This document shows, piece by piece, positions 1-10,864 of a stretch of DNA of 10,864 nt; the stretch's first letter is position 1, and every line of letters begins with the position of its first letter. Both the position numbers and the translations under genes were made by a program. Where the stretch lies: NCBI GenBank assembly GCA_029856125.1, contig JAHQWJ010000010.1, positions 1 through 10,864 on the forward strand, read 5' to 3'. Under the pieces are notes generated by a model, which was not told the DNA's origin, did no database searches, and saw only the letters and a list, made by a program, of their open reading frames with translations. Source of the DNA: Promethearchaeia archaeon. Lineage in GTDB: Archaea; Asgardarchaeota; Lokiarchaeia; Sigyniarchaeales; SOKP01.

Positions 1-552
1 TACCGCGTATTTTATGAATTGGTCGTTTAACTTGTATTTAAGAGAAATTTCTGCGATCTTCTTAATATATTCTAGATTATTAGATTCCTTATGAGCTTGG
101 TCTAAAAAATTTATTGCCTCATAATATTTTGAGTCTTTAATTAATTCCTCTGCTTTAACTATGAAATTTTCAGTTTTACTTTGCTTAATCAGATTGAAAT
201 TCGCAGAGAAATTTATAGTTCTTATATCTTGACACACACTTTTGCATATATTCGGTTCAAGTAAGAGTAAAACCTTGACGATATGTTTACAGAACTTAGT
301 AGTTTTTTTAAAGTCAGGGCAGTCGTGGATGATATTTACGCGTTGTCCGTCTTGAAATATGTTTACTACATATTTCGAGTTTCCAGAGCCTTGAATATTA
401 GCTAAAATTTTAATTGTTGGACTCTTTACCACATTGAAATTAATTATGTTTTTATTCGGAATGCTTTTTCCTCGATTAAATCTAGCTCCAATCACGTGTC
501 TTTTGAACAAATCGCCGTTTTGAATATTATTTTTAAGATCTATAGTGTTCAC
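1..552 (-). CDS. SWIM zinc-finger protein with downstream TPR-like helices (3' end runs off the window)
   Basis: Not in the ORF track; translated by hand from GTG at 552 and open for 184 codons to the window edge: MNTIDLKNNIQNGDLFKRHVIGARFNRGKSIP...ILANIQGSGNSKYVVNIFQDGQRVNIIHDCPDFKKTTKFCKHIVKVLLLL...ENFIVKAEELIKDSKYYEAINFLDQAHKES. It has the RG helix, the A-x-I-Q-G-S...Y-x-V strands and an HxC-x9-CxH motif (283-327) typical of prokaryotic SWIM proteins. The start codon is uncertain. Confidence 0.88.
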   Translation of the reverse strand, partial: MNTIDLKNNIQNGDLFKRHVIGARFNRGKSIPNKNIINFNVVKSPTIKILANIQGSGNSKYVVNIFQDGQRVNIIHDCPDFKKTTKFCKHIVKVLLLLEPNICKSVCQDIRTINFSANFNLIKQSKTENFIVKAEELIKDSKYYEAINFLDQAHKESNNLEYIKKIAEISLKYKLNDQFIKYAV

Positions 553-576: not shown

Positions 577-3150
577 TTATTGATTGGTAATGATTTCAGA
601 TATTAATTTTGGAAAGTCTCTCCACTGATTTAATGTTAAAAGAACTCCATTGGCTTCTTTTACCATTTTTTTGGCCATGACTGGTGAAAATCCAAACTTT
701 GGAACGACCATAACGAATTTTATATCTTTTTCCTTCATGATTTTTAATTCCTTTAAGCTATTGTTGAAGTCAAAAACATCTGCATCTGTAAATAATATGT
801 TCAGTTTGTATTTCGAGCGTGCTTTTTTTTCAAATTGAAGGTTTGCCCATTTAAGTGCGTGGTTTATACATGTGCCTCCCCTAGCGGTTATATCAAGTAA
901 TTCGTCAACTACTTTTTCCAATTCAACATCATCATCAAGATTTTTTAATTTGTGCGTGTTAGACTCAAAAAAAGTAAGTGCGATTTCTTCTGGTTTAAAT
1001 GCATAAACTAACATTGTTGTGCATAACGCCATTTGAGCTAACTTGTTTCCTTTCATACTTCCGCTTATGTCCAATTCAAGAACCATACATCGAAGACCAT
1101 CGGTAGTTTTTGACACTAAAAAATCGTCGTTAGTAATCGTTTCTACGGTTTTTCCACCCTCCAGTAAATTACTTATAGTCTCTTCTAGATCAATTAATTC
1201 AAAATCGTCCCCCAAAGTGTAAGGGATTACAACATTCTCTACAAGGGGTCCAGATTTGGCAGTACCAATTAATGAATTTGCCGCATTAATACCTAAATCA
1301 ATCATAATTTGTTTTATGATCTCTTTCAACTTCTTCTTGATTTTGGCTGAAATATTATGCCTTGAATAAAACCATTGTTCTAATAGATCCAAACCGCTGC
1401 CAGCACCCAGAGAGGAAAACGCCATATCAAGAGCATCGTCTCCCATTTGTTCAGCAGACCTTAATACTTGAGATAAGTTTTTCTCGCTTAACGCGCTCAG
1501 AACTTCCAAATTCGGCTGTTTTAGTGGAGCACCTCCTAACGCCATCTTCACTATCTCGTCAATCTGCTGGGGAGATAATTCCATCTCCTCGAGATAATCT
1601 TTATATGTCTGATAATTCGATTGATTCTCCTTGACTAATTGTTTAAAAACTTTATAACTTTTTTCGATTAAGTTAAGTATTTCTGTTTCTGTCATTTTGA
1701 GCCTTTTACCTGCGTTTTTAATAGAGTTAATGTTCGGAGAAAAGCCCATCTTGTTAAAATCCTTAACCATATTACTTAACGAGTCTTTACTAACAGCTTT
1801 TTCGACGGTTTTATCAACTAATTCAGAAACTTTATTGTTCAGTTGCGATTGGCAAGAAAGATCGCTACAGTTTTGTTTAGAATCAATTAAATTATCGATG
1901 TAATTCTTCATCTGGGCATCTTTCATTTGTTTATCGCTGTATTCGTCATTGATTGATTGGACATCCTTATCAATAATATTTGACATTAATTTTCGCCACG
2001 CTGGAGATTTTGTAGGGTTGTTGATTAATTCCTTTTTGATATCAGTTGAGTTTTTTCCTTTACTAAAGTTATCAAAATTTTCGTTAATCTCATCTAGATA
2101 TTGTTCGCTCAAATTGTCTCCAAAATATTGATCAAAGTTCTTTGCGTTATTGTAAGCGTCTTTAAATGGAAGGTTCAAACTGGTATTTAAGATACTATCA
2201 ATTTTTTTCTTCGCTATGTTAGGATTTGATCCCAAGACTTTTGAAGTGTTAAAAATATCGTTCAGATTTTTGTTAGATTTAGAGAGATTTTGTTTCAAAA
2301 GATTTTTTACTATGTTTTGACCTTGTTCGGTTAATTTATTCGATTTTAAAGCAAATTCAGCAATGTTCAATCCTTCAAAGGAATTATCGCTTAAAGCTTT
2401 AGATAAACTTTCCTTAAATTTGTCCAGTTTTTGGTCCTTTGCGAGTTGAGACATTATTTTTTCTTTTAACGAGTCAGATTTGGAAATTATGTCATCCAGT
2501 AAATCTAATTTTTCAGCTGCATCTATATCCTCGGGCTCTAAATAGTTTATTTTGTTTTTTAGCAATTCTTTTGCGTAATCAAGCAAAGCTTTTAAATCTT
2601 TAAATTGATTGAAGTTTGCAATAGCATTTTTGTCAATGATATCTAAAGCTGTCTTATATGGATTTTCTTCTAGATCTTCGCTAAATCGGTCAAAAAAATC
2701 GTTTAGACTCTCGTCCATTAACTGATCTAAATCAAGATCTTCTAACTCATTAAAAAAATTATCTAGTAATTCAAAATCGTCAAACATCTCATCTAATTCG
2801 CTCAAATCTAATCCTAGATCATCGAGTAAGTCTTGGGCTGTTTCACTCCCAAATATGTCAGATTTTGCTACATCAGAAGACATCCGATTTTTCATAGGGT
2901 TATTATATGATAATATTTCTGTGGCAATTTTCCGAGCTAAAGCTTGATTTTCAAGAGGACTGGTAACAACAGCAATTTCAATAAAGTCGTTGATTTCACA
3001 AACGCCTTTGTTCATAAATCTCGCTATTATTAATTTGCAAATAGCTATGGCTTGGCGGATAGATGGTTTATACATGCACTTCTCATGATTCCTTAACGCA
3101 TTTATGAACTTAAGAGAAAACCAAACTGGGCTTTGGGGGAAGATTATCAT
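577..3150 (-). CDS. vWA (MIDAS) domain protein, CoxE/YehP-like MoxR partner with long N-terminal extension
   Basis: 857-aa ORF. The C-terminal vWA domain has an intact MIDAS: DISGS (residues 694-698, nt 1057-1071), GGT, and FTDAD. It is preceded by an IDLEETI segment typical of CoxE-like vWA proteins and lies 32 nt downstream of a MoxR ATPase. Confidence 0.92.
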   Translation of the reverse strand: MIIFPQSPVWFSLKFINALRNHEKCMYKPSIRQAIAICKLIIARFMNKGVCEINDFIEIAVVTSPLENQALARKIATEILSYNNPMKNRMSSDVAKSDIFGSETAQDLLDDLGLDLSELDEMFDDFELLDNFFNELEDLDLDQLMDESLNDFFDRFSEDLEENPYKTALDIIDKNAIANFNQFKDLKALLDYAKELLKNKINYLEPEDIDAAEKLDLLDDIISKSDSLKEKIMSQLAKDQKLDKFKESLSKALSDNSFEGLNIAEFALKSNKLTEQGQNIVKNLLKQNLSKSNKNLNDIFNTSKVLGSNPNIAKKKIDSILNTSLNLPFKDAYNNAKNFDQYFGDNLSEQYLDEINENFDNFSKGKNSTDIKKELINNPTKSPAWRKLMSNIIDKDVQSINDEYSDKQMKDAQMKNYIDNLIDSKQNCSDLSCQSQLNNKVSELVDKTVEKAVSKDSLSNMVKDFNKMGFSPNINSIKNAGKRLKMTETEILNLIEKSYKVFKQLVKENQSNYQTYKDYLEEMELSPQQIDEIVKMALGGAPLKQPNLEVLSALSEKNLSQVLRSAEQMGDDALDMAFSSLGAGSGLDLLEQWFYSRHNISAKIKKKLKEIIKQIMIDLGINAANSLIGTAKSGPLVENVVIPYTLGDDFELIDLEETISNLLEGGKTVETITNDDFLVSKTTDGLRCMVLELDISGSMKGNKLAQMALCTTMLVYAFKPEEIALTFFESNTHKLKNLDDDVELEKVVDELLDITARGGTCINHALKWANLQFEKKARSKYKLNILFTDADVFDFNNSLKELKIMKEKDIKFVMVVPKFGFSPVMAKKMVKEANGVLLTLNQWRDFPKLISEIITNQ

Positions 3151-3182: not shown

Positions 3183-4328
3183 TTATGTGGATCCTAGGAC
3201 TTGAGAGATAATGTTTGTAATAATATCTTTAGCCTTAACTCCAGGCTTAGCCTGAATAGCTCCAAATAAAACATTGCTTGCGAGATCTCTGAGAATTTTA
3301 TTTGAATCTGCTTTCTTATTTCTTTTCTGAGCCACACCAGTTAACCGAGCCAAGGCAATACCGCTTCTTAAACTGGCTGGTGTTTGGACTTGGTGATGGG
3401 TGCGCGTTCTATTAATAATTAAGTAGATTTTTTCTAAAATGCTCTCTTCGACTTTATAATACGGATTGTTATGCTCTATTATTTTCATTTCGGTCTTTTT
3501 GTCAGGGTAGTCAAGCTCAATCCAGACGTTAAATCGATCTTTTAGGGCTTCACCTAATCTATGGGTCCCTACTAATTCTGATGGATTCATAGCGCCAATA
3601 AAGAAAAAACCGGGGGAAGATTTGACACGCCCTATGTGTGGAATGGACAATGTCCTTTCTTCTAAGGGTTCTAATAATGAATTCTGAGTGTATTCTGTAG
3701 CGCGATTTATTTCGTTCGCTAAAAACAATCCACCGTTTAACATTGCTTTTATGAGTGGACCCGGATTGAACGCTTCGAACGAAAAACCTTTCTGGATCGT
3801 TGTGGCTGGATTAAAAGATCCTATTAGGTGAGAGGGTTTGGTCGATTCATCGAATGTTATCCACTCAAACGAATCATTTCCCGTGATTTCTGCTCTCGAT
3901 TGAGCGTAATACCTACATAGGGTTGTTTTGCCTATTCCCGGTGGCCCTACTAAAATGGGGTATAGGTTGGAAGCGTCTGCTTCAAACATTAGATCAAGAG
4001 CCTTCTCATATTGCCCTGTTAAAACGATTTCTAGCTTTTCTTCCTTTTGAAGAAGTAGATTTTTTTCAAACAAGTCTTTTAGGGTAAGTTGTTTTTGATT
4101 AAGTTGACCTTTACCTTTCACATTGATATACGGAGAGCTCTTTAAAATCGAGAGATTATCTAATCTTTTTTCTTTAGTCTCTTTTTGGGGTGTCTTATTA
4201 GCAGCAGGCTTTTTAGTAGCGTTACTAGTTTTTGCTGTCGTAGTGGTTCTTGTTTTAACTGGAGTTTTAATTGGGGGTTTTTGAGTTTTTTTAATTTGAT
4301 TATTTTTTGTTACGGGTTTCTTTGCCAT
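3183..4328 (-). CDS. MoxR-class AAA+ ATPase (AAA_5-like)
   Basis: Walker A GPPGIGKT (nt 3924-3947), PGPL motif, Walker B region LFLANEINRA, TQNSLLEPLEER, sensor 1 AMNP, Arg finger ALKDRF, sensor 2 ASLR. The first 55 residues are low-complexity and K/T/P-rich. Confidence 0.95.
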   Translation of the reverse strand: MAKKPVTKNNQIKKTQKPPIKTPVKTRTTTTAKTSNATKKPAANKTPQKETKEKRLDNLSILKSSPYINVKGKGQLNQKQLTLKDLFEKNLLLQKEEKLEIVLTGQYEKALDLMFEADASNLYPILVGPPGIGKTTLCRYYAQSRAEITGNDSFEWITFDESTKPSHLIGSFNPATTIQKGFSFEAFNPGPLIKAMLNGGLFLANEINRATEYTQNSLLEPLEERTLSIPHIGRVKSSPGFFFIGAMNPSELVGTHRLGEALKDRFNVWIELDYPDKKTEMKIIEHNNPYYKVEESILEKIYLIINRTRTHHQVQTPASLRSGIALARLTGVAQKRNKKADSNKILRDLASNVLFGAIQAKPGVKAKDIITNIISQVLGST

Positions 4329-4641: not shown

Positions 4642-5457
4642 CTATGGTGCTATAATTAAAACAATACTATAAACAAGTATCAGATTTCCTAAAATAATAC
4701 CAACATCCTTTAGCGTAGTTCGACCTAATAAATCTTTACGAGGTTTCCTGAATATATACATGATTCCAAAAGGAAAGAAAATTATTGGGAGAAATATAAT
4801 GAATTGCGTAATGATTAACGATATTATCGCTATTGCTAACGACACTAATGAAGCAATCCAAATTACCATTTGAGAAGCCTTTGGAGATAACTTCGATAAA
4901 GAGTCTCCATCAATTAACTCGTGTAGCATTTGACCCGTATAACCTACGGATGCCACTGAAAGTAATATTAATAACTCAAATACATTTAGATTGGGGAAAA
5001 AACCTAAGATTATATCGCCCGCATTAATTTTTATCATCAACCATGGTAAAACGATGTGTGAAATACCTAAAATGATATGGTTAATGATAACAAGCGATTT
5101 GAACAGACAATAAAAAATTACCAAAATAACTATGATCACTAAATAAATCCCTAAAAGTGGATACACTACAATTCTATTCATAAAACAGATAGTCCCTATT
5201 AAGAAACTCGCTAATGAAATCGTTAAAATTTCTTTCCGACTATATCCTTGAACTCTTTCTAGCGTTTCTATCTCGTCTGGATTCTTCATATCTATAACGT
5301 CATTTAAAGTATTTCCTGTAATAGCATAAAAAGCAAACCCCGCTAAAATCCAAATGTGAGCGGTGATCTCATACTTGTTTAAATAAATGCTTAATAAACA
5401 GGGAACGAGGACTGAAAATAAGTATTCAATTCTTAATAATCTAAATCCATTACTCAT
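4642..5457 (-). CDS. UbiA-family prenyltransferase (divergent)
   Basis: Multi-pass membrane protein with N-terminal LLRIEY, first Asp-rich motif GNTLNDVID (NDxxD at 5290-5304) and a degenerate second motif HELIDGD (4903-4923). I prefer ATG 5457 over the track's GTG 5469 because a TATA-like TTATAATA lies about 25 nt upstream. Confidence 0.8.
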   Translation of the reverse strand: MSNGFRLLRIEYLFSVLVPCLLSIYLNKYEITAHIWILAGFAFYAITGNTLNDVIDMKNPDEIETLERVQGYSRKEILTISLASFLIGTICFMNRIVVYPLLGIYLVIIVILVIFYCLFKSLVIINHIILGISHIVLPWLMIKINAGDIILGFFPNLNVFELLILLSVASVGYTGQMLHELIDGDSLSKLSPKASQMVIWIASLVSLAIAIISLIITQFIIFLPIIFFPFGIMYIFRKPRKDLLGRTTLKDVGIILGNLILVYSIVLIIAP

Positions 5458-5586
5458 TGAAAAAATCACATTGAGATATATTATAATGAAGTAATAATTA
5501 ATAAAGTAAAAAAATTTAGGATTTTATTAATTTCTAACAAATTTTGGTTCCTTTTTAAGGGGGTAGAACTCTGGATTCATTAAATT

Positions 5587-5606
5587 AGAAAAAGAAGATT
5601 AAAAAA
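5587..5606 (-). terminator. U-rich archaeal-type terminator after the small-ORF pair
   Basis: Minus strand reads TTTTTTAATCTTCTTTTTCT, starting about 10 nt after the TAA at 5616. Confidence 0.4.
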
Positions 5607-5615
5607 TTGATACTA

Positions 5616-5741
5616 TTAAATAAAAACCCTATTATTACTATTGAGAAACGACTCTAATAATCTGTAAGTTTTTGGAATGTATTGTGCTCTTTCAATAAAT
5701 GAGGGTTTACTAATTTTTCTCTTGACATATTTATATCCCAT
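5616..5741 (-). CDS. Small basic hypothetical protein (41 aa)
   Basis: ATG 5741 to TAA 5616: MGYKYVKRKISKPSFIERAQYIPKTYRLLESFLNSNNRVFI*. SD-like AGGTG at 5752-5756; followed by U-tracts. Confidence 0.55.
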   Translation of the reverse strand: MGYKYVKRKISKPSFIERAQYIPKTYRLLESFLNSNNRVFI

Positions 5742-5767
5742 ACTTCTTTTACACCTGAATTGTATAT

Positions 5768-5932
5768 TTAATTGTAAGCACTATAATAATCCCGTTGAAA
5801 AGAGATACTTTTTAGAAGCGTCTCTTTATTTTCAAAGTACTTGTTGTTATATCTAGACTCTTCTATTGCTTGAGATAATTTTTTGTTCTTCAGACTAACT
5901 TTTTTATTATTTATTTTATTTACTAATGCCAC
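5768..5932 (-). CDS. Small basic hypothetical protein (54 aa)
   Basis: GTG 5932 to TAA 5768: MALVNKINNKKVSLKNKKLSQAIEESRYNNKYFENKETLLKSISFQRDYYSAYN*. Strong archaeal SD AGGTGAT (5938-5944) sits 5 nt before the start. Confidence 0.6.
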   Translation of the reverse strand: MALVNKINNKKVSLKNKKLSQAIEESRYNNKYFENKETLLKSISFQRDYYSAYN

Positions 5933-5965
5933 TTATTATCACCTATTTTATTAAATTAAACGAAT

Positions 5966-6022
5966 AATATATATTTTCTGTATAAAGTATATATATAAAA
6001 TAAAAAAGTATATATAAAATAA
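5966..6022. promoter_or_regulatory. Divergent promoter region with repeated TATATA elements
   Basis: Palindrome AATATATATT (5966-5975), then the direct repeat AAAGTATATATATAAAATAA (5984-6003) / AAAGTATATATAAAATAA (6005-6022). The last TATATAAA (6011-6018) is positioned for a leaderless transcript starting near ATG 6039. Confidence 0.55.
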
Positions 6023-6023
6023 G

Positions 6024-6050
6024 AAATTCTTCCATAATATGGAACGATTT
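6024..6050. promoter_or_regulatory. Inverted repeat centred on the regulator start codon (candidate operator)
   Basis: AAAT-TC-TTCCATA-A-TATGGAA-CG-ATTT: a perfect 7-bp core (6030-6044), with 11 of 13 positions pairing overall. Confidence 0.45.
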
Positions 6051-6926
6051 TACAGAAAAATACAGAAGTTAGGAGGCTCTCTTGTTGTGAGCTTGCCTAA
6101 AAAATGGACTAAAAACTATAAACTGACTAAAGAATCTTCAGTGGCTATCAATCTGAATAATGATGGATCCTTGAGTATCAATCCAGAACTAACTCCTTCG
6201 AAAAGAGATCAGGATAAATTAATACTGGAATCAAATCCATATGTGGTTAGAGAAGTGGTAAAGAACATATTATCTGGACAAACACACATAATCATTGTTT
6301 CAGATAAAATAATTAACAAGAGTTTAAGAAACCAGATAAGATATTGGGTTAATGGACTACCAAATACTGAAATTACTGAAGAAACAAACCAAAGAATTGT
6401 TGTACAAAATTTTGGATATAAAAAGATACCAACTAGCAAATTGATTCAACGTCTTCTTTATTTAATAGCAGATATGTTTGATGATGTGAAACACGAAGCC
6501 TATGATGATTTAAGTTATAATTTTGATCAATTAAGGAAGTTTTACTTCATATTAGTAATGCACATACGAGCTTACCTTCGAACAGGAGTATATGTGACAG
6601 AAAATAGTGAATTTACTCCATTAGAAGCAATGGATTATCGAATTTTTTGTGGAAAAGTTGAGGAGATTGGTAAAATTCTGAAAAATCTTAGATTATCTCC
6701 CATAGTAATACCATTTTTTAATGAAATCCATCAATATTTTAAAGAAGTGATGGATGCCTATTTAAAACGCGATTCTAAATTATCTTACTATGTTTGGTTG
6801 AAGAAGTACAAATTAATAGAGAAGGCAAATGATTTACTTGAGATACTAGATATTAACGACCATGATAAAATCAAAAGTATGATCGAAATTGCTGAGCGGT
6901 GCAAGGATATGGCAGGGTTAATTTAG
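6039..6926 (+). CDS. Archaeal phosphate-uptake-regulator family protein (N-terminal AbrB/MazE-like DNA-binding domain + PhoU-like helical bundles)
   Basis: N-terminus RKIQKLGGSLVVSLPKKW...NNDGSLSI is the AbrB-like signature of this family. It is followed by GLPNTEITEETNQRIVVQ and PhoU-like helices (RKFYFILVMHIR, EAMDYRIF..KVEEIG, EIAERCKDMA). Confidence 0.88.
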   Translation: MERFYRKIQKLGGSLVVSLPKKWTKNYKLTKESSVAINLNNDGSLSINPELTPSKRDQDKLILESNPYVVREVVKNILSGQTHIIIVSDKIINKSLRNQIRYWVNGLPNTEITEETNQRIVVQNFGYKKIPTSKLIQRLLYLIADMFDDVKHEAYDDLSYNFDQLRKFYFILVMHIRAYLRTGVYVTENSEFTPLEAMDYRIFCGKVEEIGKILKNLRLSPIVIPFFNEIHQYFKEVMDAYLKRDSKLSYYVWLKKYKLIEKANDLLEILDINDHDKIKSMIEIAERCKDMAGLI

Positions 6927-6930
6927 GGGA

Positions 6931-8118
6931 TTAAACTACCTTGTCTTGATAAAATTTCTCTATATCGTTATCATTATACCCTAATTCTAGAAGTATTTCT
7001 TTAGTATGTTGTCCTAATACTGGTGGAGATGTTAAAATTTCCCCCGGTGTGACAGAGAGTTTGACAGGAACTCCCGTTACCTTGATTTTTCCGGCTTTTA
7101 AATGATCAAGGTCTTTAACCATATTTCTATGTAGCACCTGTGGATCAGTAAAGATTTTATCCATATTATAGATTGGGCCACATGGAACACCAGCTTTAGT
7201 AAGAATATCAAGCCACTCTTGAGCATATTTCGAACTAATTATTTCACTAATAATGTTGACCAATTCATCTCTATTTTCGACTCGTTTTGCATTTGTAGAA
7301 TATAATGGGTTATCTATTATATCTTCTAATCCAACAACCATACAAAATTTTTGCCATAATTGATCATTACCCGCAGCAATATTAACATATGTATCTTTAG
7401 CTTTGAAAGCTTGATAAGGTACAATATTAGGATGTCCGGAACCTAAAGGTTGTGGAATTTCACCAGATGCAAAAAAAGACCCTGCCCTATAAGTTAACCA
7501 TGCAACTTGACTATCCAATAGAGACACATCAATCATTTGACCTTTGCCGGTTCTTTCACGATTAAAAAGAGCAATCATAATACCATACGCTGCAAACATA
7601 CCTCCTGCAATATCAGCTACAGCTATCCCAACTTTAATTGGAGGTCCCCCAGGTTCACCTGTAATACTCATTAGACCCCCCATTCCTTGTAGTACTTGAT
7701 CAAAACCAGGCAATAACCTGTATGGGCCATCCTGTCCAAAACCGGATATACTTGCATATATAATTTTTGGATTTAACTCAACAACATTCTCATAACTTAA
7801 TCCAAGTTTATCCATCGTTCCTGGTCTAAAATTTTCAACAATAACATCTGCCTTTTTTATTAATTTTTCGATAATCTCTTTTGATTTCTCACTTTTCAAG
7901 TTCAAAGTTATACTCTTTTTATTACGATTGACACTCATAAAATAAGCACTTTCTCCTTCTACAAAAGGAGGTCCCCATGATCGAGAATCATCTCCTCTTC
8001 CGGGCATTTCTAATTTAATTATTTCAGCTCCCATGTCTGCTAGCATCATTGTACAATAGGGACCCGCAAGAGCTCTCGACAAATCCAAAACTATAATGCT
8101 TTCTAGTGGTCTTACCAT
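6931..8118 (-). CDS. Family III CoA-transferase (CaiB/BaiF/Frc family)
   Basis: VLDLSRALAGPYCTMMLADMGAEIIKLE, GDDSR, NRNKKSITLNLK, ADVIVENFRPG, SISGFGQDGPY, catalytic-Asp region VADIAGG, and C-terminal PPVLGQHT. Confidence 0.97.
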   Translation of the reverse strand: MVRPLESIIVLDLSRALAGPYCTMMLADMGAEIIKLEMPGRGDDSRSWGPPFVEGESAYFMSVNRNKKSITLNLKSEKSKEIIEKLIKKADVIVENFRPGTMDKLGLSYENVVELNPKIIYASISGFGQDGPYRLLPGFDQVLQGMGGLMSITGEPGGPPIKVGIAVADIAGGMFAAYGIMIALFNRERTGKGQMIDVSLLDSQVAWLTYRAGSFFASGEIPQPLGSGHPNIVPYQAFKAKDTYVNIAAGNDQLWQKFCMVVGLEDIIDNPLYSTNAKRVENRDELVNIISEIISSKYAQEWLDILTKAGVPCGPIYNMDKIFTDPQVLHRNMVKDLDHLKAGKIKVTGVPVKLSVTPGEILTSPPVLGQHTKEILLELGYNDNDIEKFYQDKVV

Positions 8119-8254
8119 CTCCTATTTCACTTTTCTCCTATTTAACACGCTTTTTAATGTTATGAATAGAATATGTAACATTATAATTGAAGATTTCCTA
8201 ACAAAGACAATTTTTATCTACATAAGTAGAAATTAACTATGAGAAGAAAATCAT

Positions 8255-9055
8255 CTAGAAAAACATGGTTATTGCTAAACTTATTAAAACTGTGGCCACA
8301 AAAAGTTTTAAATAAAATTTAGGCATCTTTTTAGAAATTTTCGCTCCAATTATAGATCCTAAAATGGATCCTATTGAAATTATAATCCCAACAATAATAT
8401 CAATCTGACCTGTAATACTTTTTATAATTGTGTTATAAACTGCTGTGAAAAAGACTATTGAAGTTGATATCGCAGTAGAATTATGAATTGGAAAGTGTAA
8501 AACAATATTAAGAGAGGGAGAGTTAATAATTCCTCCTCCAATTCCTAGAAAGTTAGCTGCAAATCCTGCTAAAATAAAATATGGAATAGATTTCTTAAAG
8601 TTAGATTTATAATCATGAGTTTCTAAAGAAAAATTGCTTACTTCTTCAGTTTGATTTTTTGTTCTTTTATTTGCTTTTAAAGTCTTGTAAATCATATTTA
8701 TTCCAGCAATTAATAAAGTGCCCGCAAAGATCATTTTTAATACAATACTATCCACATGAACAAAGGAAAATAAAATCGAAGCTAAAACGCTTCCCAAAAT
8801 TGAAAATGCAGCGAACAATAAAGAGAGACGAAGATTTGTTCTTTTTTGTCGTAGATAGGTTATAAAGCCTGCTAAAGAAGAAAAAAGAATTATGAACGTG
8901 CTTGTATCTACTGCAATATTAATAGGGAAAAGAAAAAGGAGCGTCATGATTGATACGAAGAATACTCCTCCGCCTATTCCCGCGATAACAGAAACAATAC
9001 CGGATAATAGACCAAGTAAAATTAATAAGGAGACAAGATAGAAAGATAATTCCAT
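8255..9055 (-). CDS. Sulfite exporter TauE/SafE family permease
   Basis: Two internally repeated halves, each with GIGGG (IAGIGGGVFFV, FLGIGGGIINSP), followed by AVDTS and TAISTS respectively; hydrophobic helices throughout. I prefer ATG 9055 over the track's TTG 9118. Confidence 0.92.
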   Translation of the reverse strand: MELSFYLVSLLILLGLLSGIVSVIAGIGGGVFFVSIMTLLFLFPINIAVDTSTFIILFSSLAGFITYLRQKRTNLRLSLLFAAFSILGSVLASILFSFVHVDSIVLKMIFAGTLLIAGINMIYKTLKANKRTKNQTEEVSNFSLETHDYKSNFKKSIPYFILAGFAANFLGIGGGIINSPSLNIVLHFPIHNSTAISTSIVFFTAVYNTIIKSITGQIDIIVGIIISIGSILGSIIGAKISKKMPKFYLKLFVATVLISLAITMFF

Positions 9056-9205
9056 AGGCGATAAAATGGTATATTCATCATAAATCTTTTTAATAATTAG
9101 AAAGAGAATCTTTATCAAAAAATTGAAAGAAAAATCAATAATTAAATTATAAAACAGTTATTAGATTAATAATTATTTAATTTTAAATTCAAATAGTTAT
9201 CATTT

Positions 9206-9601
9206 ATGCCCGACTCTAACGAAGATAAGCTGGTTGTTGCTCTCGTTGCATGTTCTCGGTGTGGAAATGCTTTTATGATAAAAAAGGGACAAAAAAAAAC
9301 CGATCATTTGGTATGTGATAACTGTATTAGGTTAGAACAGCGAAAAAAGCAACTCTCAGACTCAGTTAAAGAATCTCAAAAAGAAATTGAAAGTTCTATT
9401 AAAGGATATAAAAATTCATTAAGAGTTGCTAAATCTCAAAAAATCAAACAAATATACTTCGATAAGATTAAGAAAACTTCTAACACATTAAATAACTCCG
9501 TCGAACTTCTTAAGAAGATAGAAGAAACTAACGATGAGAAGTATATCGAAGAATTTAAGAAGTTATTTGAAGAAATGAAAAAAGAGTATACAGATAAATA
9601 A
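9206..9601 (+). CDS. Hypothetical protein: CxxC-x17-CxxC zinc ribbon + coiled-coil
   Basis: CSRC...CDNC in the N-terminal third, followed by K/E/Q-rich helical sequence; T-tract after the stop. Confidence 0.8.
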   Translation: MPDSNEDKLVVALVACSRCGNAFMIKKGQKKTDHLVCDNCIRLEQRKKQLSDSVKESQKEIESSIKGYKNSLRVAKSQKIKQIYFDKIKKTSNTLNNSVELLKKIEETNDEKYIEEFKKLFEEMKKEYTDK

Positions 9602-9613
9602 TAAGCAACACAT

Positions 9614-9625
9614 TCCTCTTTTTTT
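9614..9625 (+). terminator. U-rich terminator candidate
   Basis: TCCTCTTTTTTT about 13 nt after the TAA of 9206-9601. Confidence 0.4.
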
Positions 9626-9714
9626 ATAATTTCATTCAGAATCATTTTTATACAATCTAAATTTCAAATTATTTAAGTTAAAATATCATTTTAAAAATTC
9701 TCCTCGAACAAAAA

Positions 9715-10137
9715 ATGCCGTTAAAACAAATATCTCTGTTTCTCCCAAATAAACCAGGGCAACTTGCTAATTTCTTTGAATTTTTAATGAACCACAAAAT
9801 ATACATAAGATCTTTAACTGTTGCTGAAACAGAAGATTATGGATTATTATTACTCCTTGTCAAACCTTTTGATAAATGCATAGTATTATTAGAGGATAAT
9901 GATTACTTACATTCAGTAACGGAAGTTATCGCAGTAAAACTATCAGACAATATCACTCAGTTGTATAATATCGCTAAAACACTTGGGAATCACGATGTAA
10001 ATATCGAATACATGTATACTTTTGCAGAAGAGACGTCAGAAATAAGTACAATGACAGTTCTGAGGCTAGATGACAACGAAAAAGGAACAAATGTTTTAAA
10101 AGAGCATGGTTTTGAAGTGGTGGAACATTTCAAATAA
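9715..10137 (+). CDS. Tandem ACT-domain amino-acid-binding protein (BT0572/COG4747-like)
   Basis: KQISLFLPNKPGQLA...IRSLTVAETEDYGLLLLLV (first ACT), VIAVKL...VNIEYMYTF (second ACT). Confidence 0.92.
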   Translation: MPLKQISLFLPNKPGQLANFFEFLMNHKIYIRSLTVAETEDYGLLLLLVKPFDKCIVLLEDNDYLHSVTEVIAVKLSDNITQLYNIAKTLGNHDVNIEYMYTFAEETSEISTMTVLRLDDNEKGTNVLKEHGFEVVEHFK

Positions 10138-10175
10138 ATTAAGGCGCTAAAATTACTCTTTTTAAAATTTAAATT

Positions 10176-10864
10176 TTACATTTTCAATTTCATGCGATCT
10201 AATAGCACTTTAATCGCATAAGCTGCCTCCGTTGGAGTAAAAAACACGGGTGCTTCCTCTTTTTTAGCAAATTCCCTTAGATCCATGAAATTTTCTCCAA
10301 AAAATACAAAAGGCACGAGCGGTTTTAATCTTTTCGTTTCATTCCAAGCTCTTATCATTCCCCTATAATGCTCATCAGATTTCATTTCTAAGAATGGGGG
10401 AATAACCAAGCATGGGACAACTATATCTATATCTGAATCTTCCAGCATGGCTTTCGTTATCTCGTAAAATTGTTGCTCAGCAGCTACGCCAATCATGTCT
10501 AGAGGATTCTGAATTTTAACTAGCGAAATCAGATAGGGTTGAATCTTTTGTTTGAGAGCGTCGGAAAACTCAGCTAATGTCAAATTAAACTCTTCTACCT
10601 TATCGCTGAACAAAACAGAGCTTCCACCACTATTCGTTAAAACTCCTATTCTCTTACCCTTAGCGTCGGGTAAAAATGAAAACGCTTTTAAAGCAGTAAT
10701 AAAGTCAGTGGCATTTTCACACAATGTTGCTCCTGCTTGTTGTATAGATGTTTTCAACATTTTATAGTTTGTGGCTATTGAACCGGTGTGACTACTTGCA
10801 GCTTTCATCCCCGATGAAGTTCTTCCGCCCTTTAAAATAATAACAGGTTTAATAGGAACAATTG
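10176..10864 (-). CDS. ADP-forming acetate/acyl-CoA ligase alpha subunit (5' end outside the window)
   Basis: The frame stays open upstream of the track's Met at 10808 to the window edge: IVPIKPVIILKGGRTSSGMKAASSHTGSIA (phospho-His motif SHTG), then VLTNSGG and NPLDMIG. No fused ATP-grasp beta domain follows. Confidence 0.93.
   Translation of the reverse strand, partial: IVPIKPVIILKGGRTSSGMKAASSHTGSIATNYKMLKTSIQQAGATLCENATDFITALKAFSFLPDAKGKRIGVLTNSGGSSVLFSDKVEEFNLTLAEFSDALKQKIQPYLISLVKIQNPLDMIGVAAEQQFYEITKAMLEDSDIDIVVPCLVIPPFLEMKSDEHYRGMIRAWNETKRLKPLVPFVFFGENFMDLREFAKKEEAPVFFTPTEAAYAIKVLLDRMKLKM

Follow-up and report, generated by a model that had tools for sequence, protein, structure and literature searches.

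A stand-alone AAA+ lid forms the N-terminus of a conserved vWA adaptor paired with a CbbQ-like ATPase

The vWA protein described here, 857 aa long and encoded at positions 577-3150 (minus strand) of the window (the whole stretch of 10,864 nucleotides that was analysed, from a Promethearchaeia archaeon), begins with a genuine AAA+ lid of the H2-insert clade that stands without a large domain. Together with its partner ATPase, it represents a real and conserved variant of the MoxR/vWA motor-adaptor pair that has apparently not been described before. We propose that the protein is a pseudo-subunit of the ChlD kind of which only the lid is left, and that this lid would anchor the adaptor at the seam of the ATPase ring, a reading to which we give a probability of roughly one half.

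Results

Organization of the locus

The window encodes three genes on the minus strand: the ATPase, the vWA protein and the first part of a SWIM-finger gene. The ATPase (381 aa; 3183-4328) is a CbbQ/NorQ-like protein of the AAA_5 family (AAA_5 E=1.9e-21), with the Walker A motif at 3924-3947, a Walker B motif with Asn-Glu at 3711-3728, the Arg finger at 3534-3542, its own sensor-2 at 3366-3374 and the lid at 3186-3500, all on the minus strand. The vWA protein, on the same strand, consists of a stand-alone AAA+ lid domain (residues 1-84; 2899-3150), as defined by the AF2 model, shape matches and hhalign, an acidic linker (residues 103-163, 41% Asp+Glu; 2662-2844), a middle region (residues 164-640; 1231-2661), a pre-vWA segment (1084-1230) that by analogy with NorD and CobT is a probable pore-inserting finger, and a vWA domain (580-1083; VWA_2 E=2.6e-7) with the MIDAS-type residues DxSxS (1057-1071), T760 and the Asp in FTDAD. 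A VWA_CoxE match starts at residue 653. The middle region has no Pfam match above cut-off and Atlas features of at most 0.80; in some homologues, which measure 390-540 aa in all, it is far shorter.

The SWIM-finger gene (its start at 1-552, minus strand; SWIM E=0.0057) stands third in the operon of the Lokiarchaeia subtype and encodes a protein of ~790 aa in relatives, with homologues downstream in loci L069, L071, L072, L076 and L082; its product is a candidate client or effector. The closest named relatives are in Promethearchaeota (Lokiarchaeia) genomes, where the ATPases are 93-98% identical, and a second ATPase/lid-vWA pair lies on another contig (C84) of the same genome.

Fold and homology of the vWA N-terminus

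The AF2 model of the vWA N-terminus, built from an alignment of 30 N-termini, has a pLDDT of 88.7 and contains four helices (residues 8-21, 31-48, 53-62 and 66-82), which correspond to helices 2-5 of the five lid helices in the ATPase model. The first lid helix, which follows strand 5 and covers the adenine, is missing, and most homologues begin 27-45 residues ahead of R32. This sensor-2-like Arg sits at the start of helix 31-48 within the S30-I31-R32 motif (3055-3063, minus strand; R32 codon 3055-3057), and the near-invariant R20 (3091-3093, minus strand) is equivalent to R309 of the ATPase.

The sequence-only reading had claimed an isolated AAA+ lid at this place; the predicted fold could have spoken against that claim, and it is a four-helix AAA+ lid. 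In the Atlas shape search, the matches that follow the protein's own family are AAA_lid_2, AAA_3 or AAA_5 lids in 8/8 cases (TM 0.66-0.71), and a feature search returns AAA-lid clusters. The top rows of VIA-align include the lids of dynein, BchI, Rea1, MCM and CbbQ, with middling Z values of 6.8 for BchI (rmsd 3.0, 69 aligned; BchI 267-350) and 5.4 for the CbbQ lid. A comparison by hhalign of the vWA lid profile against the partner lids gives 94% with E=1.1e-7. A profile made from vWA N-termini only finds as its next matches the C-terminal lids of adjacent ATPases in ~12 genomes (E 1e-6 to 8e-4), and in this genome the same ATPase-free profile ranks the partner lids 3 and 4 among 9,995 ORFs. 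The fold, hhalign and the profile matches support the claim of an isolated lid. Foldseek of the lid model against the PDB gave no match at E<=0.001, and sequence-profile searches of the PDB with the vWA lid gave chance matches only. In Pfam, no lid family scored above cut-off, with AAA_lid_2 weak in 2/113 members; a DUF7271 match, present in 1/113 members, was taken as chance. NCBIfam and PADLOC returned no match for the vWA protein, and neither Pfam nor NCBIfam includes a model of the lid domain.

The pairwise match from which the sequence-only reading started is marginal by itself, and homology rests on the family evidence above. The vWA segment at 3031-3108 and the ATPase segment at 3342-3419 (minus strand) do translate to the two 26-residue peptides that it had aligned, of which nine positions are identical (I16, N17, R20, H22, S30, R32, I35, A36 and L40; BLOSUM62 sum 44). 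When the whole protein is shuffled, nine or more identities are reached in 87.5% of cases, compared with 10% when the shuffle is confined to the N-terminal 100 residues. The local alignment score is not significant over the whole protein (p=0.36), which excludes the pairwise alignment as sole proof, and reaches p=0.0025 over the first 100 aa, a range chosen post hoc. BLASTP gives E=0.003, and DNA identity across the match is only 28/78. The absence of a Walker motif ahead of the lid segment was confirmed. The ORF cannot extend further upstream because the ATG directly follows an in-frame stop, and no hidden Walker region lies upstream of the lid.

Conservation and distribution

An HMMER search of 1.84 billion representatives with the lid profile gave 139 matches, and the lid is N-terminal in all of them save one spurious repeat. 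The S-x-R motif, singled out earlier as a point on which the idea could be checked, is conserved: among diverse homologues, which were gathered with a profile having an invariant R32, R32 is present in 135/135 sequences covering the position (100%), S30 in 90% and R20 in 99%. Other columns that were invariant in the seed dropped to 70-97%, and R32 is the sole invariant column among 113 diverse sequences. In the locus-derived set, R32 and R20 are each found in 125/125 sequences. Long homologues carry the vWA domain at their C-terminus; 92/96 have DxSxS, and a Walker A motif in the first 120 residues is found in 0/96.

Among the Asgard archaea, the lid profile matches 97/201 genomes, five of them via ATPase lids alone, which places the domain in ~92/201. 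Named homologues include members of Thorarchaeota, Hermodarchaeota, Thermoprotei, Desulfobacteraceae and Myxococcales, and the lid-vWA loci span Asgard, Thermoprotei, Myxococcota and Desulfobacterota. A CbbQ/NorQ-like ATPase gene lies directly upstream in 161/162 lid-vWA loci, the exception being at a contig edge; these 162 loci include kin and repeats and are therefore not independent. Conversely, a lid-vWA gene is next in 77/80 loci fetched by the ATPase. The third gene position of the myxobacterial type is taken by an SMC-like ATPase plus a small protein. One carrier, Sandaracinus amylolyticus, is a cultured, named myxobacterium with a complete genome.

Origin of the lid

The sequence-only reading had described the vWA lid as an apparent copy of the lid of its own partner, which the data do not bear out. 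Over the 26 residues, identity is 28.4% to the own partner, 27.9% to other ATPases of the family and 41.5% among vWA lids. In a tree of 91 columns, from which one MoxR row was dropped for low coverage and in which the attachment of the vWA branch is not fixed, the vWA lids cluster together (100/100), and the long branch that bears them (1.89) lies outside the partner lids. These identities and the tree rule out that the lid was duplicated from its own partner recently or in a concerted manner, and the lid domain is a single ancient acquisition.

The wider clade also holds lid-less adaptors and whole ATPase-vWA fusions. One locus (L212) encodes an ATPase followed by a degenerate ATPase-vWA fusion, the fused module of which has lost both lid arginines. 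ATPase-vWA fusions are likely the ancestral architecture, and in the simplest scenario a fused partner resembling ChlD would have lost its large domain on one occasion.

The partner ATPase is predicted to use its own sensor-2 in cis

A sensor-2 that acts in trans on the neighbouring subunit had been assumed for this clade at large. This geometry is true of RavA, BchI/ChlD and MCM and not of CbbQ, Rea1 or dynein; it needs a pre-sensor-2 insert, which RavA, BchI and MCM carry after the first lid helix and which CbbQ, Rea1 and dynein lack (PMC7973254). CobS likewise has no such insert. The assumption fails for the partner ATPase, since the insert is missing, the spacing from Arg finger to sensor-2 is 56 (56-58 in the family) versus 79 in the MoxR proper of this genome and 81 in RavA and ChlD, and the model is CbbQ-like. 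Specifically, the ATPase model superimposes on CbbQ with Z 26.6 (2.3 A over 258 residues) and on NorQ with Z 26.2 (2.2 A over 252), compared with an rmsd of 16 A for the swapped CHU_0153 (2r44) and 20 A for MCM. We therefore predict a CbbQ-like ATPase, the sensor-2 of which acts in cis because the pre-sensor-2 insert is missing.

In 57/57 sequences the ATPase has a sensor-2 of its own, together with the Arg finger, sensor 1 and the catalytic Glu, so that no donor is needed, and the possibility that the adaptor lid makes up for a missing sensor-2 of the partner is ruled out. The Walker A Lys is invariant in the family, and the first Walker B Asp is replaced by Asn. Lid-less vWA partners are paired with related ATPases of the same Asn-Glu Walker B type, for example in another pair of this genome (C30) and in many further cases; a lid is thus not generally required, and a general role of the lid in making up for the Asn-Glu motif is likewise ruled out. 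The residue before the sensor-2 Arg is Ile/Leu in 95% of the ATPases and variable in the adaptor lid.

Predicted docking of the lid on the ATPase

The lid was co-folded with one ATPase chain (residues 87-381), ATP and Mg in three runs. The lid-ATPase complex reached an ipSAE of 0.81, compared with 0.00 for the best control, with 100% contact agreement between the runs and a partner pLDDT of at least 88. The mark applied is reached by 58/80 solved complexes and 2/110 mismatched pairs, figures that are only a rough guide here. Solved structures include many AAA+ rings, which the predictor may simply have reproduced, and a lid from any protein of this clade may dock at the same site; the co-fold thus speaks for likeness and not for binding.

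In the predicted complex, the ATPase side of the interface comprises residues 112-122, 127, K263-D264 and 267-271. About half of this surface is the helix before strand 1 (residues 112-122; 3963-3995, minus strand), and the second half is K263-D264 with strand 5 (267-271; 3516-3542, minus strand). The lid side comprises residues 30, 32-33, 36, 39-48, 62-66 and 69. V127 aside, neither the P-loop nor the cis-lid linker is part of the interface. The Arg-finger face of the AAA+ large domain is the packing site of the neighbouring subunit's lid in the ring, and the adaptor lid is predicted to dock on this face, at the neighbour-lid site. Several of the conserved non-core positions of the lid, S30, R32, Q33, A36, L40, R44, 47, T63 and Q69, fall in the predicted interface; R20 lies outside it and probably has a structural role. 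On the ATPase, D264 and W269 are invariant and position 116 is acidic in 97%, and lid positions 44 and 47, which face the ATPase in the model, are mostly Arg (81% at position 47). The R32-D264 pair is not among the 25 best-resolved contacts of the co-fold.

Discussion

A proposed anchor of the adaptor at the ring seam

We suggest that the adaptor, in which an acidic linker and a long middle region join a four-helix AAA+ lid to a MIDAS vWA domain, would bind through its lid to the Arg-finger face of the ATPase large domain (helix 112-122, K263-D264 and strand 5), as the co-fold predicts. The neighbour-lid site is occupied in a closed ring; for the adaptor lid to bind, there would have to be a seam or an open end of a spiral, or else a resident lid would have to be displaced. 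Docking into the ring seam, as proposed from the sequence, is supported by the prediction in that the site is free only at the seam or open spiral end; the premise of a sensor-2 acting in trans in this clade is not. The lid would cap the seam or open spiral end and would fix the adaptor N-terminus as an anchor. By analogy with NorQD and CobST, the vWA finger may then enter the pore and be turned by ATP hydrolysis, and its rotation may strain the linker and the MIDAS-bound client. R32 would be retained through pairing with D264, an invariant residue next to the Arg finger, and may tie docking to the nucleotide state. The client is likely the product of the third gene, namely the SWIM protein here and the SMC-like ATPase with its small protein in the myxobacterial type.

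Several observations on related systems are precedents for this scheme. The terminal large domain of the CobS spiral is bound by an additional small domain, and the spiral's first small domain is mobile (bioRxiv 2026.07.21.739949). The N-domains of NorD (PMC13036017) and CobT (bioRxiv 2026.10.09.757910) are anchored on the ring rim with the finger in the pore, and a pore finger has been proposed as general to MoxR partners (PMC9976466). The ChlD sensor-2 mutant R289A shows weaker ChlI binding, less than 10% activity and loss of ATP cooperativity (PMC3789969).

Alternative readings

The adaptor lid might dock at the same site in a closed or nearly closed ring and displace helices 2-5 of one subunit's lid, so that a hybrid ATP site is formed from the Walker A/B motifs and first lid helix of subunit n, the Arg finger of subunit n+1 and R32 of the adaptor. 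The adaptor would then sense or gate hydrolysis at a single site, at the seam, which revives the earlier idea of sensor-2 supply, with displacement in place of an inborn trans geometry. In its boundaries the domain coincides with the four-helix unit swapped in RavA, BchI and MCM, R32 is kept more strictly than all other interface residues, CobS has mobile small domains at its seam (bioRxiv 2026.10.09.757910; bioRxiv 2026.07.21.739949), and ChlD R289A loses ATP cooperativity (PMC3789969). However, the ATPase is predicted to be canonical and retains its sensor-2 in all 57 sequences, its tethered own lid would have to be outcompeted, and the variable residue before R32 may reflect a lost nucleotide contact. 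We consider this exchange of lids plausible, but clearly less likely than the seam anchor.

The predicted site is also an oligomerisation surface, so lid binding competes with ring formation, and several adaptor lids could bind monomers or short oligomers, block the closure of rings or the growth of filaments, and be released on a signal. CobS makes spirals and filaments (bioRxiv 2026.10.09.757910) and NorQ activity is lowered by NorD (PMC9976466), as such regulation or inhibition of assembly might lead one to expect; the intact MIDAS and the finger region nevertheless suggest motor-adaptor work, and solved MoxR/vWA complexes hold one vWA domain per closed hexamer (bioRxiv 2026.10.09.757910, PMC13036017), which makes this the least probable of the readings weighed here. 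Hardly more probable is a lid that does not bind the partner at all and is a repurposed or vestigial remnant of an ATPase-vWA fusion, serving folding, self-association or client binding. Full fusions and lid-less adaptors do occur within the same clade, the vWA lids sit on a long branch (1.89), and lid homologues may pass co-folding by likeness. Yet the sensor-2 Arg is invariant in all homologue sets, in contrast to the degenerate fused module of L212 with both arginines lost, the conserved positions map onto the predicted ATPase interface, and the gene pairing is near-constant. Anchoring at the seam, which we prefer, would share the docking step predicted by the co-fold with both the exchange of lids and the inhibition of assembly.

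Comparison with known motor-adaptor pairs

ChlD/BchD resembles the vWA adaptor here in its AAA+-derived N-terminus, its acidic linker, its MIDAS vWA domain and its pairing with an active ATPase that is homologous to it, and the sensor-2 Arg on the partner side matters (R289A, PMC3789969). ChlD, however, has a whole AAA+ module of the swapped PS2i type, whereas only lid helices 2-5 and a CbbQ-like motor are found here, along with an inserted middle region of up to ~480 aa. The vWA protein does not match the ChlD/BchD model TIGR02031, and no ChlH or CobN was found among the called genes of the inspected loci. The NorQ-NorD and CbbQ-CbbO pairs resemble the present one in the ATPase fold, in the gene order of ATPase then vWA, and in the adaptor layout of N-domain, linker and vWA domain. 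The NorD N-domain, without known homologues, binds the outside of the small subdomain (PMC13036017, PMC9976466), whereas the N-domain here is itself a lid, predicted to sit on the large domain, and the Walker B motif is Asn-Glu; unlike in those systems, nor or cbb genes are not adjacent. CobS-CobT shares the canonical non-swapped ATPase, a ring-anchored N-domain and a free spiral end that accepts an extra small domain, but CobT, unlike the lid adaptor here, binds the small domain with an M48C peptidase-like N-domain (bioRxiv 2026.07.21.739949). Midasin/Rea1, the best PDB sequence match of the ATPase profile being midasin, and the Asgard fusions (L083, L084 and L212-L222) are similar in their AAA_5-type modules, acidic linker and MIDAS, but keep the large domain, and no lid-only form of them has been described. 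For a lid-only vWA adaptor in general, no description was found in the literature searched, from which most subscription journals are missing. The lid adaptor resembles ChlD in layout and probably NorD/CobT in mechanics, and belongs to neither.

Implications

The N-domains of the MoxR adaptors described so far (NorD, CobT) show no relationship to the motor and attach to the ring on its outer side. A lid-only adaptor would be a minimal intermediate between this type and ChlD with its whole AAA+ module and, if the reading is true, the four-helix lid would be a transferable docking module. A domain of 85 residues with one invariant Arg would thus offer a handle on how vWA adaptors are anchored on, and regulate, a cycling ring, and structural work could use such a lid, if bound to an oligomerisation surface, as a natural marker of the seam. 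If lids are in fact exchanged, the adaptor would directly sense or gate the firing of the motor at that seam. Sandaracinus amylolyticus provides a myxobacterial host in which the lid adaptor can be tested.

Walker B motif and N-terminal tail of the window ATPase

Across the clade of the window ATPase, lid-less pairs included, Asn-Glu replaces Asp-Glu in the Walker B motif (window 3711-3728, minus strand), and one member, the ATPase of locus L034, carries Gln-Glu. The window ATPase begins with an N-terminal tail of about 80 residues, rich in Lys, Thr and Pro (window 4083-4328, minus strand), which is missing in the paralogue from the second pair of the same genome (contig C84) and in most other ATPase subfamilies.

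Genomic surroundings and other MoxR/vWA systems

The genes in window 4642-10864 are neighbours unrelated to the ATPase/lid-vWA pair. They comprise a membrane protein that matches no Pfam family (4642-5469, minus strand), an AbrB/MazE-like regulator (6039-6926, plus strand), a CoA-transferase III, a TauE exporter, a zinc-ribbon protein and an ACT-domain protein, followed at the end of the window by an acyl-CoA synthetase-like fragment, recognized by eye. Elsewhere, the same genome encodes a lid-less ATPase/vWA pair (C30:29544-31546), a CbbQ/NirQ-like pair (C126:238818-242248), a MoxR proper (C22:4969-7353) and a CoxE-like vWA protein (C129:9281-9547).

An independent, ChlI/ChlD-like tandem occurs in an Asgard genome (L212:1898-4656, minus strand): next after an ATPase comes a degenerate fusion of ATPase and vWA, in which neither lid arginine is retained. 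Asgard ATPase-vWA fusions and their relatives (L083, L084, L182-L189, L216-L222, L169) possess a GxxxxSK(T/S) Walker A motif, not GK(T/S), and a Glu-Glu or Asp-Glu Walker B motif. Fusions of about 720 residues (L213-L215) are adjoined by a second AAA gene of 750-790 residues, assigned by a weak match and, judging from its protein size, possibly CDC48-like.

Diversity of lid-vWA operons

Short lid-vWA forms of 433-458 residues (L034:6001-7377 and L180:6001-7302) lack most of the middle region, residues 164-640 of the window protein. The gene for one of these two forms is directly preceded by smc-scpA-scpB. One complete 6.04-Mb genome carries two lid-vWA operons (L085 and L086).

A second operon type, hosted by Myxococcota, Desulfobacterota and some Lokiarchaeia, shows the gene order small ORF, SMC/SbcC-like ATPase (620-870 residues), protein of about 180 residues, ATPase and lid-vWA; examples are Sandaracinus amylolyticus (L177:2204-5105) and the loci L032, L178, L181 and L085. 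The SMC-like protein matches the PADLOC models mad3 and LmuB, probably via the generic SMC fold, and a link of this operon type to defence is possible.
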